Sequence record: NC_054930.1 | Source of the DNA: Escherichia phage PP01 | Reading direction: 5' to 3' (one strand) | DNA: 64,000 bases | Part shown: in pieces, positions 4,346 through 10,786 of the stretch | Numbering within the stretch: the stretch's first letter is position 1 | Layout: each line of letters begins with the position of its first letter | The notes under the pieces: model-generated | The model's input: only the letters and a program-made list of their open reading frames with translations | What the model was told of the DNA's origin: nothing | The model's database searches: none | Translations under genes and position numbers: made by a program

Positions 4346-4617
4346 TATTTAAAACGGATAGTCGAATCCTTGAAGAATAGACCAGAACATACTGTTCCTT
4401 CTACTTTCTGCCCGGTAGGTCCAATAGCACGAAATCCAGTATGCTGGAAATCATTTTCAGAGCAACCGAACCAGTTGTATCCAGTGATTTCAATATTAGT
4501 AAAACCGCTTGAAGACAAAATTTTGGTTGCATTATCAGCATCAGTACATCCTACTAAAGATACTGCTAATACTAATGCTGCGATAGAACGATTAACATAT
4601 TTCATAATTTCACTCAA
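4345..4617 (-). CDS. putative lipoprotein
   Basis: 90 aa; N-terminal signal peptide with lipobox LVGC. Confidence 0.5.
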   Translation of the reverse strand: MSEIMKYVNRSIAALVLAVSLVGCTDADNATKILSSSGFTNIEITGYNWFGCSENDFQHTGFRAIGPTGQKVEGTVCSGLFFKDSTIRFK

Positions 4618-4981
4618 ATTTAATGGCTTGAAGAAGACTAATAATTCTCAAGCGACTTCTTTCATCTTTAACTGTAAAAGAAAGAGGGTCGCCAGATTTC
4701 ATAGTGATAGTGCATTCAAAATCAAAATCTTCAGGAACTTCTTCGAAGAAGTCAAATTCTTCATCATAAATTAGAACATTACTCTGAAAACTGTGAAGAA
4801 TTTTTCCATCATTTCCAGATGCTGTACTAATCATTGTAACATTATGGCCTTTCATATCTTCAACGATAAATTCGCTTGTAGATATTACGGCATTAATAGA
4901 ACCATTCCTATAAATAGAAGAAAGCAGATATTTCTTTTCTTCACCTTCGCGAACACGATATTTCTTACCGATTTTAAACAT
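4610..4981 (-). CDS. hypothetical protein
   Basis: 123-aa ORF in the co-oriented early gene chain. Confidence 0.45.
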   Translation of the reverse strand: MFKIGKKYRVREGEEKKYLLSSIYRNGSINAVISTSEFIVEDMKGHNVTMISTASGNDGKILHSFQSNVLIYDEEFDFFEEVPEDFDFECTITMKSGDPLSFTVKDERSRLRIISLLQAIKFE

Positions 4982-5162: not shown

Positions 5163-5582
5163 TTATTCCTTAAAGTGTGCTTTCAACATCTGATACAAGG
5201 ACCATGCCTGTTCATTATTTTCAATAGTAACTTTCATGACAGGAAATTCTGTGAAATCTTCTATTTGTTCTTGCTCTTCCTGCTCTTGCTCTTCAGCTGC
5301 CTGATATGGATTTTCCACTTCATCAAAGAACTCAGCTTCGTTAGTAGAAAGCCAGATAAAGTTTTCATCAAGGATATCACCATGTTTTGCATATCCAATT
5401 GTGCCAGTAAATGACATAATTTTAGTAGGACGACCAAGATGGTCAGCATCTAAAATTTTAAAAGGATGCATACCTAAACGGCGTGCATAGATTCCGTTAT
5501 CAGTATGGTCTTTAATAAAAGCTTCTTGAGCCTGTTTATTTTTAAATTGATACCATTTATTAACTTCAAATCTAATAGCCAT
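5163..5582 (-). CDS. hypothetical protein with acidic [10 protein letters not shown] tract
   Basis: 139-aa ORF; strongly acidic stretch near C-terminus. Confidence 0.5.
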
Positions 5583-5797
5583 TAATAAATTTCCTTCCAG
5601 TAAGTTGTGCCATCTTCAGTAATTTCACGAAATACACCGTAAATTGGCTGTTTATCACCAACCTTTTCATACACATAAACCGAAGTCAAGTGAGTAAACT
5701 TAACAGTATGTTCCTTTTGAACCACTACCAAATCTGGATCGAATAATACATCTTCAAATTCGTCATTAGTGCATTTCTGAACAGTTTTACGTTTCAT
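5582..5797 (-). CDS. hypothetical protein (size and position compatible with T4 cef)
   Basis: 71-aa ORF; start overlaps upstream stop. Confidence 0.45.
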
Positions 5798-5810: not shown

Positions 5811-6080
5811 TTAATTGAACAGTGGAGCGATGCGTTTCAGAAGAGTGGCAGCACCTTTGGCGAATTTTACATCATGAAAAACAGTTTCTTCTTCCGTTAC
5901 AACACGAGCTTTAATGTTTTCACAATCCCAATTTTTACGAACAATCTTCAAAAGCTGCAGTAAATCTTTACATTCAGCAATATCGATAACACATCCATGA
6001 GAATCTTCCATTATCGCACGATAACCATAAGCCATACCATAATCGTTGAAAGACTGTTCGATGATAATTAAGTTTTCCAT
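5811..6080 (-). CDS. hypothetical protein
   Basis: ORF track gives 5811-6092 (MENKM start); the ATG at 6080 follows the GGAG Shine-Dalgarno of a repeated start cassette and is the likelier start. Confidence 0.45.
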   Translation of the reverse strand: MENLIIIEQSFNDYGMAYGYRAIMEDSHGCVIDIAECKDLLQLLKIVRKNWDCENIKARVVTEEETVFHDVKFAKGAATLLKRIAPLFN

Positions 6081-6187
6081 TTTATTCTCCAAGTTGTTTT
6101 CTGTATCAGTAGTTGATATTGATATAGTACCATAATCAACTACTGATGTATATAGTTTTATGAAAAAATTTTAAACTTTATGCAAAT

Positions 6188-6607
6188 TTATGCTAAAGCT
6201 GCTTCGCACCATTTTTTAATTTGGAATTCAGGAACTACCATGAACTGGCCTGCAAAAACAATATTGTAGAGCTTGACACCATCTTCTACCCAACGGTCCG
6301 AAATAAAACCAGCGACTTGATTCGTTGTCCATGGAGTTCCATCTGTTGCCGCCGCAATTGTGAATTTATGGTCTTTTACAACTAAAACTGAAGAACAAAG
6401 TTTCCATTTAAATGCGCTTTCTTCTGGCTCAATGAATTGGCTTGAGACATAACCAATGTTACCATCAGCGTCACGAACTTTAACCTCGTTACGACCAAAA
6501 ACTGGATCACTTACAGAAAGAACTTCAACCAGCTTTCCTGCAACTTTAGAACGAGAAGCAACGGATACATATACGTAATCACCAGTAGAGAGATTTACAA
6601 TATTCAT
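6188..6607 (-). CDS. MotB-like paralogue (KOW-like N-terminus)
   Basis: 139 aa; shares RSKxAGxLVEV and C-terminal WxEDGxxLYNxVFxGxF motifs with the next two ORFs. Confidence 0.5.
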   Translation of the reverse strand: MNIVNLSTGDYVYVSVASRSKVAGKLVEVLSVSDPVFGRNEVKVRDADGNIGYVSSQFIEPEESAFKWKLCSSVLVVKDHKFTIAAATDGTPWTTNQVAGFISDRWVEDGVKLYNIVFAGQFMVVPEFQIKKWCEAALA

Positions 6608-6616
6608 AATAATTCC

Positions 6617-7093
6617 TTAAGCTTTACGAGGAGAAGCATAACGAATGATTTCAGATTCTTCAACAACCCGGAAGTCACCTAAAAATACAATATTGTATAG
6701 CTTTTTACCATCTTCAATCCATTGGTCTGTAATGAAGCCACACATCCTATCAGTTTTACTTGGACCAGCGAAATCATCAATATAATCGAATTTTTCAGCA
6801 GTTACAAATTCAACGCCTTTGCACAACGGCCATTTAAATTGTGCATTAGACTTAGTGGATTCAACTTCTTTAACAGAAGCAAAATGAGCGCTAACATGAG
6901 TTTCCAGAAATTTAGGACTTACGTAAGCGTACTGAGTTTCAATTTTTCCAGAACTAGGAATGATTCGAACTTTAACTTCTTTAACACGACCAGTACCATT
7001 AGTACGAAGTCCTACCACTTCAACTAGACGACCTGCAGCTTTAGAACGGGATTTATCAGATACACGAGCAATTTCACCAATATTAATAATCAT
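6617..7093 (-). CDS. motB: MotB-like DNA-binding protein
   Basis: 158 aa, near T4 MotB size and position; KOW-like N-terminal motif; paralogous to neighbours. Confidence 0.45.
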   Translation of the reverse strand: MIINIGEIARVSDKSRSKAAGRLVEVVGLRTNGTGRVKEVKVRIIPSSGKIETQYAYVSPKFLETHVSAHFASVKEVESTKSNAQFKWPLCKGVEFVTAEKFDYIDDFAGPSKTDRMCGFITDQWIEDGKKLYNIVFLGDFRVVEESEIIRYASPRKA

Positions 7094-7137
7094 AGTTATC
7101 TCTCACTTGTTAAAAAGATTTTATACTCCGCGGGACC

Positions 7138-7167
7138 ATTATACTCTGGTCCCAAGAGTTTGTAAAC
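7138..7167 (-). promoter_or_regulatory. early promoter; -10 region embedded in an inverted repeat
   Basis: GTTTAC / TATAAT with 18-bp spacing; -10 lies in the loop of GGGACCA...TGGTCCC. Confidence 0.5.
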
Positions 7168-7169
7168 TA

Positions 7170-7712
7170 TTAATTTAAAATAGCTACCACAGCACTACGA
7201 GGTACTACACTAAAATCACCTGCATGAACAACGTTCAGAAGTTCAACACCATCTTCAACCCACTGGTCTGTTACCCAACCACAGACCGAAATAAATGGGG
7301 TCTTGATAGCTACAGCACGAGTTAGAAGGTCGGTAGGGTCTTGTTCTTCAACTTCTTGGAACAGGATGAACTCTGCTTCATAAACCAGGATTTTCTCCAT
7401 TTTGTTATTGTCTAAACGACGACCGTGGACAATATAAGATTTAGTAAACCATTTACTTTTTTCAAAGTCTTCAACGGTAAATTCGCCTTCGCCAAAAACA
7501 TCAGTCAAAGTTTTATGGCCGGAAATCAAGGCATTAGTTTTAATTTCAGGTTCAACCAGTTTGTAGGTTTTGCCGATTTCAATAGCAGTAGTCATAGTAG
7601 GTTCCTTAATTTCCAGTGGTTTAACAGGGCATACATAAGTGCTTACAACATCAAAATCAATCAGTTTAGCTACCGGATTTGGTGTGTATTCAGGATTATA
7701 ATTAAATTTCAT
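7170..7712 (-). CDS. MotB C-terminal-domain paralogue
   Basis: 180 aa; C-terminal QWVEDGVELLNVVHAGDFSVV matches the family motif. Confidence 0.45.
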   Translation of the reverse strand: MKFNYNPEYTPNPVAKLIDFDVVSTYVCPVKPLEIKEPTMTTAIEIGKTYKLVEPEIKTNALISGHKTLTDVFGEGEFTVEDFEKSKWFTKSYIVHGRRLDNNKMEKILVYEAEFILFQEVEEQDPTDLLTRAVAIKTPFISVCGWVTDQWVEDGVELLNVVHAGDFSVVPRSAVVAILN

Positions 7713-7714
7713 AT

Positions 7715-8218
7715 TTATCTCATTTCAATAAAATCTACGAGTTCAGCATGCGATTTACGGAACATTACTTGGTGTCCGCCAATTATAACTTCATCTTCAG
7801 GAACTTCGTATACAGCGAGATAAAATCCTTTGGAAGATAATTCTTCACGCTCTTCTCGAGTAAACCATCTCATCATATCATATTCACTAGCGAAAGCAAA
7901 ATGATAAAGAGCTATAAACCATCCTGGAATATAGTGATCTACGCCTACATATTCCTCTTTCTCAAATTTAGTATTAATTGCTATATTAGCATTTTTAACT
8001 AATAATTTGTCTTCGCGCGGAAGAGGAATTCTTTTGTTATCATTACTATGATGTGTAAAATTAGGTCTATCATAACCTACGTGTAATAACCACTCTTCGC
8101 TCCATGAATCTATTATACTCCTGTATGGCGTTATTTGAACACAAAGATTTCGACGTATTGTTATAGCATCTTCACAATTAAGAATACTAAACGATGATTC
8201 AACACGATAAATTTTCAT
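7715..8218 (-). CDS. hypothetical protein
   Basis: ORF track 7715-8257; start moved to the Met at 8218, which lies downstream of the early promoter at 8246-8275 and has a GAGGA Shine-Dalgarno. Confidence 0.4.
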   Translation of the reverse strand: MKIYRVESSFSILNCEDAITIRRNLCVQITPYRSIIDSWSEEWLLHVGYDRPNFTHHSNDNKRIPLPREDKLLVKNANIAINTKFEKEEYVGVDHYIPGWFIALYHFAFASEYDMMRWFTREEREELSSKGFYLAVYEVPEDEVIIGGHQVMFRKSHAELVDFIEMR

Positions 8219-8245
8219 TTTATTATCCTCAGTAGCTATGGTGTT

Positions 8246-8275
8246 ATAATACCACAACTAACCGAGGAAGTAAAC
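8246..8275 (-). promoter_or_regulatory. early promoter
   Basis: GTTTAC, 18 bp, TATTAT with GTGG extension. Confidence 0.5.
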
Positions 8276-8281
8276 AACTTT

Positions 8282-8965
8282 TTATCGTTTTGTTGGAAGA
8301 GAAAGAGGATCGCACTCTTCCTCTGACGGAGCATCTTCAAGACCCATAGCATATCGCAAAGCATACTTCATCATCAGGATGTCTTTCGCACAGTCATGAA
8401 TAGAATCATGTGCAACGAATCCATCTAAAGTTCCCTTTGGAAGAGGACACGTGGTCATATCACGAACAAGCAGAAGTGCTTCAATTCTGGTACGAATATC
8501 ACGTTGATTCCAGAATTTACATGGTTCTAACTTAAATGTGTCAAGTTCATTCTCAGAAACGCCGTTAAGACGCTGAATATCGCGAATGAGATCGACTAAA
8601 ATTGGAAAATCAAACGACATTCCACGGCACCAGCCTTGAGATTTCCAAGGATCGATGTTATGTGCATTGATGTAATCATTAAATTTTGCAATACCATCGA
8701 TAGTGCTTACATCTTCATCTGATGGTGCAATATTTTTTCGAGCTTCAGGAGACTGATTTTTCCACCATTCGATAGTGCTTTTAGTAAAAAGACGATGTCC
8801 TTTTTGGCTTTTTAAATCAAACTTGATTTTAATGCCGCGTGAAACTAATTCATCAAATGTTTCAACTACTTCTGGATTAGGGTCAAAGGCAATAACAGCC
8901 AAATCAATAACAGCTGCCTTTTCACCGCTTCCCATTGTTTCAAAATCTATAATAAAATCAAACAT
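8282..8965 (-). CDS. dexA: exonuclease A (DnaQ-like 3'-5' exonuclease)
   Basis: 227 aa as in T4 DexA; DEDD-type exo motif IIDFETMG. Confidence 0.85.
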   Translation of the reverse strand: MFDFIIDFETMGSGEKAAVIDLAVIAFDPNPEVVETFDELVSRGIKIKFDLKSQKGHRLFTKSTIEWWKNQSPEARKNIAPSDEDVSTIDGIAKFNDYINAHNIDPWKSQGWCRGMSFDFPILVDLIRDIQRLNGVSENELDTFKLEPCKFWNQRDIRTRIEALLLVRDMTTCPLPKGTLDGFVAHDSIHDCAKDILMMKYALRYAMGLEDAPSEEECDPLSLPTKR

Positions 8966-9240
8966 TAAATTTTCCTCGCTAAATCGCGAATTTGACCTAC
9001 AGTATAATCTTGGATATAAACTTTATTAATGGGCTCATCAATAAATTTTGCCATAGATTCAATATCTTTTTGTATCTCTTCAAGACTGTATACTATCTTT
9101 AAAGCTTTTTCGCGAATAGTAACATTATCAGGTCCTGAATTTTCTTGAATGACAGCTTTAACATTTGCCATAAGAGATTTAAACTGATGCAAACTTAATT
9201 CAATCATTAATAACCGCCTTATAAAGATGGCTAATTTCAC
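8965..9240 (-). CDS. small hypothetical protein (dexA.1 position)
   Basis: 91-aa ORF; C-terminus paralogous to the next ORF. Confidence 0.45.
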   Translation of the reverse strand: MKLAIFIRRLLMIELSLHQFKSLMANVKAVIQENSGPDNVTIREKALKIVYSLEEIQKDIESMAKFIDEPINKVYIQDYTVGQIRDLARKI

Positions 9241-9445
9241 CTAAAACATAATCACTGATTGTAACAGTTTTCACTTCACCGCAAAAGAATTCTAATGCAA
9301 TCAAATCTCGTTCAATTTCTTCCAATTGAAGCATTAACTTGCCCGATTCAATTTTCACGTTTTTGCGATTTTTACTATAAGCTATTTCATAAATTTCGCT
9401 CACTTTATCTTGAAGCAGATAAAACTGGTCTTTAGTTATTTCCAC
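9200..9445 (-). CDS. small hypothetical protein (dexA.2 position)
   Basis: 81-aa ORF; paralogous to 8965-9240. Confidence 0.45.
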   Translation of the reverse strand: MEITKDQFYLLQDKVSEIYEIAYSKNRKNVKIESGKLMLQLEEIERDLIALEFFCGEVKTVTISDYVLGEISHLYKAVIND

Positions 9446-9466
9446 GAATAGCTTCCTCGAATTTAA

Positions 9467-10786
9467 TCATACGTAAAACACATCATAACGACCACGAGTG
9501 ACACCAACATAAAGAAGCTGCTGAGCTAGTTCAGCATCTGCATAATGAATACAAGGCGTATAGATAAAAGCACGGTCTACAGACATGCCCTGAGCTTTAT
9601 GGAATGTTGATGCGGGAAGTGCTTTCACTTTACTAAACTGTGATTTAGCATCCCAAAAATCGCTCCACGGAGCTTTTCCACCTTTATTCCAATTTTTATA
9701 AGTTTCTGCCGTTTTACCTAAAAATAAGTTAAACTTATACAACTCTTCATCAGATGAAATTATTTTAATCTTTTCACGATAATATTCATCATCGCCGTAA
9801 GTTTCTACTGTTAAATCCCAATGACGAATTAGATATTCTCCAGAAACACCACGAGCTTTAACAAATGTTGATGTATACTCTGCTTCTATAATACGAACTA
9901 ATTGTCCGTTATTAAAAATAATTTCTGACACAGGCTTTCCATCAATTTTATATGTTTTAATTAATGGTTCCTGCATTACAATAATTTCACCAACGATAAA
10001 ATCTTTATCAGTTTCAAAAATCTTTTTGCGAATAATGCTATTTAACTTGTCAACGGATTTATTCGTAAATGCCATTACACGATTTTCAAACAAATCATCT
10101 AGCGATTTGACGATTGAAAAATAATTTACCATAAAATCGCGTAAAGCGGTATCACCAGTAAATCCACGTACTCCATGCCCGTCAACAATTTTATCATAAA
10201 TCCACTTACCATTACGAACATCAGTAGCTACATCAATAATAGGAGCATTACTACGTTTAACTTCAGTGAGTTCACACTGATAAAAATCTTTGTGTGTAAA
10301 GAATGGACTGATATAAGCAGTGTTTTCTCCTGGGTCAACAGGTCTAATTTGCTTATTATCGCCTATTCCAATTATAGTACACCATGGCGGGATAGTTGAA
10401 AGCAAAATTTTAGATAGCTTTCTATCATACATTGACACTTCGTCGCAGATTAATACCCTGCATTTAGCCAAATCCGGTACTTCTTTTTGCTCAAAAAGAA
10501 CGTTTTCTTCGTATGTTACTGGGTTAATTTTAAGAATACTGTGAATAGTACTCGCTTCTTTCCCTGACAGTTTTGAAAGAATCTTTTTAGCTGCATGAGT
10601 AGGAGCTGCTAAAATAATGCCAGTTTCGCCTGTAGATATTAAGGCTTCAATGATGAACTTAGTAAGAGTAGTCTTACCAGTACCAGCAGGTCCATTAATA
10701 GTTACATGATGTTTCTTTTCTTTAATAGCCCTCATAACGATGTTAAAGGCATTTTTCTGGCCTTCTGTCAAATCATCAAATGTCAT
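9467..10786 (-). CDS. dda: Dda DNA helicase (SF1)
   Basis: 439 aa as in T4 Dda; Walker A GPAGTGKT, Walker B LICDEVSM. Confidence 0.9.
   Translation of the reverse strand: MTFDDLTEGQKNAFNIVMRAIKEKKHHVTINGPAGTGKTTLTKFIIEALISTGETGIILAAPTHAAKKILSKLSGKEASTIHSILKINPVTYEENVLFEQKEVPDLAKCRVLICDEVSMYDRKLSKILLSTIPPWCTIIGIGDNKQIRPVDPGENTAYISPFFTHKDFYQCELTEVKRSNAPIIDVATDVRNGKWIYDKIVDGHGVRGFTGDTALRDFMVNYFSIVKSLDDLFENRVMAFTNKSVDKLNSIIRKKIFETDKDFIVGEIIVMQEPLIKTYKIDGKPVSEIIFNNGQLVRIIEAEYTSTFVKARGVSGEYLIRHWDLTVETYGDDEYYREKIKIISSDEELYKFNLFLGKTAETYKNWNKGGKAPWSDFWDAKSQFSKVKALPASTFHKAQGMSVDRAFIYTPCIHYADAELAQQLLYVGVTRGRYDVFYV

Follow-up and report, generated by a model that had tools for sequence, protein, structure and literature searches.

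MotB of bacteriophage T4 is a DNA-binding protein. According to Patterson-West et al. (2018, 2021; PMC6070864 and PMC7827196), MotB is toxic in E. coli, binds DNA tightly and irrespective of sequence, whether modified or unmodified, co-purifies with H-NS and StpA only when DNA is present, changes the H-NS footprint, raises the expression of H-NS-repressed host genes, and doubles the burst size. The protein is composed of a KOW N-terminal domain (NTD) and a putative OB-fold C-terminal domain (CTD) (Patterson-West et al. 2021, PMC7827196). MotB.1 proteins have the CTD in common with MotB, while their NTDs differ, and several phages encode more than one copy, e.g., two motB genes, one motB.1 gene, and a 29-aa CTD peptide in RB69 (PMC7827196). 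[quoted passage not shown] 2025, PMC12152347). The N-terminal hallmark of this family is a bent, five-stranded antiparallel beta-sheet (SH3/LSm-like).

The genes described here, P1, P2, and P3, are consecutive in the window, i.e., the whole 64,000-nt (64-kb) stretch of Escherichia phage PP01 DNA that was analysed. An earlier note had interpreted them as a tandem triplet of MotB-like paralogues, suggestive of the diversification of a DNA-targeting factor. Based on homology, architecture, synteny, purifying selection, distribution, and charge, we consider it probable that the trio represents three functional early genes joined by a promiscuous CTD module and encoding MotB (P2), its old paralogue (P1), and MotB.1 (P3), with the coating of DNA by P2 only. 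The trio and its shared CTD are already described, widespread (approximately 200 sequenced phages), and ordinary; GenBank labels already read "MotB-like" for the trio genes (three times in pSe_SNUABM_01). The trio itself thus adds little, as the domain shared by MotB and MotB.1 and the multi-copy phages have been published.

The motB Region and Its Expression Signals

The 2.8 kb around the trio shows 99.1% DNA identity to Escherichia phage vB_EcoM_SA21RB (OL960580, Tequatrovirus ime09), at near-equal genome coordinates in both phages, and 713 phage records match this 2.8-kb region. The window is assigned to Tequatrovirus, its motB region being ime09-like. Every gene of the region is carried on the minus strand. 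The order of genes, by ascending coordinates, is goF-like (5163–5582), cef (5582–5797), a 93-aa ORF (5811–6092; phrog_3720, function unknown), P1 (MotB-like, 139 aa, 6188–6607), P2 (the MotB orthologue, 158 aa, 6617–7093), P3 (the MotB.1 orthologue, 180 aa, 7170–7712), a motB.2-like gene (7715–8218/8257, 87% identity to T4 MotB.2), dexA (8282–8965), and dda (9467–10786). The trio is thus held in the cef-dexA interval of Tevenvirinae, in synteny with T4, RB69, and SA21RB; in T4, this interval consists of cef, motB, motB.1, motB.2, and dexA. The 93-aa ORF between cef and P1 has no T4 counterpart at that position, and its comparison with MotB.2 revealed no relationship. Together with P1, it accounts for the DNA by which the region exceeds that of T4.

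A promoter scan and the OL960580 annotation both indicate two putative early-type promoters on the minus strand. The first, TTTACA-17-TATAAT with 11/12 matches (7138–7166), precedes P2-P1 and is overlapped by a GGGACC...GGTCCC hairpin (7125–7159, −20.5 kcal/mol, z −3.5) that encloses its −10 box. The second (8246–8274) precedes the motB.2-like gene and P3, whose ATG lies 2 nt past the stop codon of the motB.2-like gene. P1 starts 9 nt past the stop codon of P2, which is itself overlapped by an AAGGA Shine-Dalgarno sequence. P1 would be transcribed together with P2, and its translation is probably coupled to that of P2. Downstream of P1 there is a 13-bp perfect inverted repeat capable of forming an RNA hairpin (6105–6147, minus strand, −20.2 kcal/mol, z −5.7), annotated as a terminator in OL960580, which, although it has no T-run, is likely to mark the end of the P2-P1 transcription unit. 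A simple terminator scan returned no site and flagged neither of the two strong hairpins (6105–6147 and 7125–7159). The promoter consensus and synteny point to the trio being early genes.

Homology and Age of the Three Genes

Across the six-frame translation of the 64-kb window, the motif W.[ED]DG..L.N.V..G.[FY].V[VI] has three matches, all within the trio (6233–6292 in P1, 6662–6721 in P2, and 7203–7262 in P3), and the conserved block G-x-[IV]-[ST]-D-x-W-x-EDG-x-x-L-x-N-x-V is present in P1, P2, and P3 and nowhere else in the window. All three proteins exceed the gathering score of 25 for the Pfam family PF17613 "motB", with 72.1 bits for P1, 150.5 for P2, and 35.1 for P3. The profile is covered in full length by P2, mainly at positions 89–160 by P1, and only at positions 120–153 by P3. 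The motif RSKxAGxLVEV has two matches in the 64-kb window, in P1 and P2 only, and the N-terminal KOW-like barrel with SRSKxAGxLVEV, a mark of the MotB family, was found. Both the C-terminal block common to the three genes and the KOW-like motif common to two of them, as claimed in the earlier note, are therefore confirmed.

The similarity clearly exceeds that of random ORF pairs, as tblastn comparisons between the paralogues gave E-values from ~6e-24 to 8e-8 (~6e-24 to 1e-23 for P1/P2, 3e-8 to 8e-8 for P1/P3, and 2e-9 to 4e-9 for P2/P3). The identity is 46%–49% for P1/P2 and 31% for P1/P3 (46% and 31% in the multiple alignment). The dS between P1 and P2 is saturated (1.2), hence the duplication must be old. 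A recent triplication does not fit these data, since the trio consists of MotB, a MotB-like paralogue, and MotB.1; nor is the expansion a local or new event, as a pair of CTD genes exists in T4 and orthologues of P1 occur in 206 of 772 phage records, RB69 among them. The notion of three MotB-like paralogues is correct insofar as the genes are homologous via the shared CTD, but P3 is an orthologue of MotB.1 and has a different NTD. Pairwise dN/dS values against orthologues are 0.13–0.16 for P1, 0.32–0.35 for P2, and 0.25–0.35 for P3, and purifying selection acts on all three genes.

P2 and P1, the Proteins with KOW-like Domains

P2 (158 aa) is 48% identical to T4 MotB (162 aa; E 1e-49) and matches PHROG 1671 over its full length (phrog_1671, E 5e-66). 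By sequence and position it is the MotB orthologue, and the match in size and location proposed previously holds. The likeness to T4 MotB extends to the length class, the KOW-like NTD followed by the CTD, the location between cef and motB.1/dexA, the early-type promoter, and the basic charge (pI 9.0 versus 9.2 for T4 MotB), which in P2 is concentrated in the KOW-like NTD (pI 10.2). In the AF2 model (mean pLDDT 80.9, alignment of 52 sequences), the predicted layout comprises a KOW-like N-terminal barrel (residues 1–64), a disordered linker (67–83), and a small C-terminal beta-barrel (85–155) with strands at 93–106, 110–127, 130–137, 140–145, and 149–152. The shared CTD, as delimited by the alignment, corresponds to residues 85–158 (6620–6841, minus strand).

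P2 differs from T4 MotB in being a divergent allele. The 48% identity of the MotB proteins compares with 87% for the adjacent MotB.2 (7715–8257), and the P2-type allele resembles the MotB of RB69 (78%–82%) more than that of T4. These identities mark motB as an allelic hot-spot.

P1 belongs to the same PHROG (phrog_1671, E 1e-50). Its identity to T4 MotB is 37%, and that to the second "motB" of RB69, RB69p010, is 87%. P1 is classed as a paralogue of long standing that matches P2 in architecture (KOW-like NTD and CTD) but has a shorter linker; the shared CTD comprises residues 66–139 (6191–6412, minus strand, from the alignment). P1 shares this architecture with T4 MotB too, but the linker is shorter, the basic charge of the KOW domain has been lost, and T4 has no counterpart of P1. 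The pI of P1 is near-neutral to acidic (5.4; 6.1–6.6 in orthologues), and that of its KOW domain is 5.2 versus 10.2 in P2.

P1 orthologues with at least 80% identity are present in 206 of the 772 phage records searched; none of these records showed identity of 60%–80%, and 566 had a distant MotB match only. Concomitantly, the P2-type MotB CTD (at least 60% identity) was found in 202 of 776 records. The near-equal totals of P1 and P2-type records (206 versus 202), from which the association is deduced, together with the rows with "three places" and the arrangement in RB69, which has the same P1-P2 pair, suggest that P1 and the P2-type allele form a two-gene cassette that moves as a unit in some Tequatrovirus phages and in RB69-like Mosigvirus. 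P1 would thus be inherited with the P2-type allele, also in the latter group. For T4 specialists, it may be of use that P1 would travel with one MotB allele as a cassette common to Tequatrovirus and Mosigvirus. The motB region of RB69 resembles that of the window in the P1-like/MotB/MotB.1 order, with 87% identity for P1 and 78%–82% for P2; however, motB.2 is located downstream of the P1-like gene in RB69 and upstream of motB.1 in the window.

P3, the MotB.1 Orthologue

P3 matches phrog_2333 (E 4e-84), a PHROG other than that of P1 and P2 (1671), and its residues 44–125 match phrog_622 (E 3e-6), the family of the goF-like proteins of the window. Its resemblance to MotB is limited to the last ~55 residues (PF17613 on 142–175), while the comparison with T4 MotB.1 gave a BLASTP E-value of 1e-14 and 52% global identity to the 143-aa protein. 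P3 is accordingly identified as a full-length MotB.1 orthologue, in which a GoF/LSm-like N-terminal barrel appears fused to a MotB-type CTD. Its reading as a MotB duplicate was rejected on the basis of PHROG 2333, the GoF-family NTD, and the MotB.1 alignment. As in T4, the gene is placed directly upstream of motB and downstream of motB.2, the NTD matches the GoF family, and the CTD is of the MotB.1 type (Categories 2–4, PMC7827196). Unlike T4 MotB.1, P3 has an N-terminal extension of 39 aa, predicted to be disordered, and a complete CTD, which the 119-aa T4 reference protein lacks through a one-base frameshift.

In the AF2 model of P3 (mean pLDDT 70.2), residues 1–41 are predicted to be disordered, the NTD lies within residues 44–120, carrying a helix at 60–73 in its 49–120 part, and a five-stranded CTD occupies residues 133–177 (strands 133–137, 142–153, 156–163, 166–171, and 175–177). 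The shared CTD spans residues 125–180 in the alignment (7173–7340, minus strand). P3 is strongly acidic (pI 4.8; 4.6–5.1 in orthologues), its CTD even more so (pI 4.3).

An alternative start codon, M40 (ATG 7595–7593), is preceded by an AAGGA Shine-Dalgarno sequence, and the PP01 annotation corresponds to the 141-aa form. With such a strong Shine-Dalgarno, translation possibly starts at M40. The treatment of the first 39 codons (7593–7712) as an over-extension of the annotation is disfavoured by their pN/pS of 0.30 and the conservation of the ORF. Some P3 homologues, of 246–251 aa, have an additional LSm-like barrel on the N-terminal side of their P3-like part. In P0190 and P0231 (246–250 aa), the extra barrel replaces residues ~1–15 and precedes the same linker motif, LIDFDV...; in P0235 (251 aa), that motif is followed by two LSm-like barrels. 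A scan of IMG/VR with P3 yielded 11 loci, too few for a census.

Disrupted motB.1 Genes in the T4 and RB69 Records

The motB.1 gene of the T4 reference genome (NC_000866.4, 7291–7650) encodes 119 aa and ends with ...GWVTDQWI-GRWR*, inside the shared CTD. The next reading frame continues LEDGVELLNVVHAGEYSVVPRSAVVAILN*, equivalent to the C-terminus of P3. The frameshift is caused by one extra G, TGGATTGGAAGATGG instead of TGGATTGAAGATGG. Its distribution was determined by exact-match searches with a 62-mer containing GG and a 61-mer with a single G. The former was 100% identical only in AF158101.6 and NC_000866.4, the latter in 13 other, closely related records, i.e., eleven T4 records (T4T, KJ477684-6, MT984581, MZ375356, OL964735/45, OZ209023/57, and OZ035787), RB55, and RB59. 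Over the 1631 nt from motB.2 to motB, the extra G is the sole difference between the reference and MT984581, in which MotB.1 is annotated as a 143-aa protein with a full CTD. The 119-aa MotB.1 of the T4 reference hence appears to be a one-base artefact, the intact protein having 143 aa.

Neither PMC7827196 nor PMC12152347 mentions this frameshift. The expression constructs of Kim et al. were obtained by gene synthesis; the sole T4 sequence cited is NC_000866.4, for the amber-mutant plasmids, and MotB.1 was reported at 13.8 kDa (PMC12152347). The synthesised constructs, the single cited sequence, and the size of the protein together indicate that the MotB.1 expressed in that work probably had no CTD. 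The sole functional study of MotB.1 thus probably tested a protein without its conserved domain.

In the RB69 record, two indels break motB.1 into three reading frames (4377–4873 of the NC_004928 stretch compared), while all three genes of the window are intact. The 29-aa RB69p012 is the tail of the RB69 motB.1 CTD, i.e., the "Category 3 peptide" of PMC7827196.

Such disruptions might suggest that one or two copies are non-functional duplicates in the course of decay, the more so as the region is dispensable in T4 and the motB.1 CTD is disrupted in both the RB69 and T4 reference records. We regard this as very improbable: dN/dS is 0.13–0.35 for all three genes, intact ORFs are found in hundreds of records, and the T4 frameshift is restricted to the two reference records, AF158101.6 and NC_000866.4, the RefSeq copy of the former.

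The Shared C-Terminal Domain

The CTD query matched 776 phage records at 1579 places, i.e., two or three copies per genome. The search of 1.84 billion representatives with the CTD profile returned 30 clusters, ~27 of them real; P0246 (10 stretches), P0252, and P0255 were rejected as false positives arising from repetitive sequence. All the real clusters consist of small proteins ending with the CTD, which is preceded in each case by a KOW, LSm-like, or double LSm-like N-terminus. The module of ~45–70 aa would be best viewed as a small SH3/Tudor-like beta-barrel, always C-terminal and fused to differing small N-terminal barrels.

The fold assignment comes from the P2 and P3 models. Their common top fold hits, obtained with whole models so that NTD and CTD matches are inseparable, and the order of strands and helix, with a short helical turn between CTD strands 4 and 5 and none between strands 3 and 4, suggest that the domain is a small barrel of the SH3/Tudor-like kind more than a canonical OB-fold. 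Searching the PDB by sequence with the family profile gave no match at E ≤ 1.

If the CTD were nevertheless a nucleic-acid-binding OB-fold, all three proteins could be nucleoid- or DNA-targeting factors diversified in specificity or timing. The OB-fold assignment is HHpred-based and either domain of MotB could bind DNA (PMC7827196), IF5A/EF-P-type proteins are among the fold hits, and the CTD is the best-conserved part of the MotB family. The position of the helical turn in the models, however, fits the SH3/Tudor-like fold better, the invariant core of the domain, TDQW-x-EDG, is acidic, and so are P1 and P3 overall, down to the pI of 4.3 of the P3 CTD. Moreover, burst size and latent period were unchanged in T4 delta-motB.1, and the overexpressed MotB.1, probably truncated, left the reporter assay unaffected (PMC12152347). 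This reading thus seems doubtful, although it deserves more credit than the other alternatives considered here.

Possible Roles of P1, P2, and P3

The explanation that we prefer, functional early genes sharing a CTD module, assigns MotB-like DNA coating to P2 only, since P2 is basic and P1 and P3 are acidic. By analogy with the experiments on T4 MotB, P2 would be made early and in abundance, coat DNA irrespective of its sequence, and alter how H-NS sits on it, leading to a better burst size. The part contacting DNA would most plausibly be the basic KOW-like NTD. P1 and P3, being acidic, are themselves unlikely to coat DNA. The earlier suggestion of three diversified DNA-targeting factors therefore has only partial support, P2 alone being basic like T4 MotB. 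The charge that a DNA coater should have is seen in the MotB orthologue alone, which turns the role of the CTD into a sharper, testable question. The CTD present in all three proteins would more likely serve as a surface for a shared partner or for oligomerisation than as one for DNA binding.

P1 and/or P3 might also act as modulators of MotB, by forming hetero-oligomers via the common CTD or by competing for a MotB partner, so that the DNA-coating protein is tempered in its toxicity or timing or an RNA-binding LSm-like barrel is recruited to the same site. The apparently constant linkage and co-transcription of P1 with the P2-type allele, the acidic character of P1 and P3 versus the basic P2, the high toxicity of T4 MotB when expressed alone (PMC6070864), and the migration of MotB.1 as a monomer and a dimer (PMC12152347) would agree with such a role. 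It is pure inference, though; T4-type phages manage without P1, and the dimer was seen in non-reducing SDS-PAGE (PMC12152347), with a protein probably devoid of most of its CTD. We consider the modulator role unlikely.

The more specific proposal, that the shared CTD is a docking or oligomerisation barrel that does not bind DNA and through which the acidic P1 and P3 partner or antagonise the toxic MotB, is more speculative still and rather improbable. If true, the locus would be a small regulatory module and not a set of three parallel DNA binders, and the published negative results for MotB.1 would need repeating, as the protein expressed probably had no CTD.

Other Features of the Region

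The window differs from its closest relative near dda: with dda running from 10786 down to 9467, ~230 nt of SA21RB are absent from the window at 9200–9470. In SA21RB, a further small ORF, SA21RB_017, is annotated between dexA.2 and dda (record 9433–9693; 5434–5694 of the OL960580 stretch compared). Just downstream of the trio, two members of the GoF family (phrog_622) are encoded at 4610–4981 (E 3e-29) and 5163–5582 (E 2e-40). Counting the NTD of P3, the window has three GoF/LSm-like barrels in a span of 3 kb.
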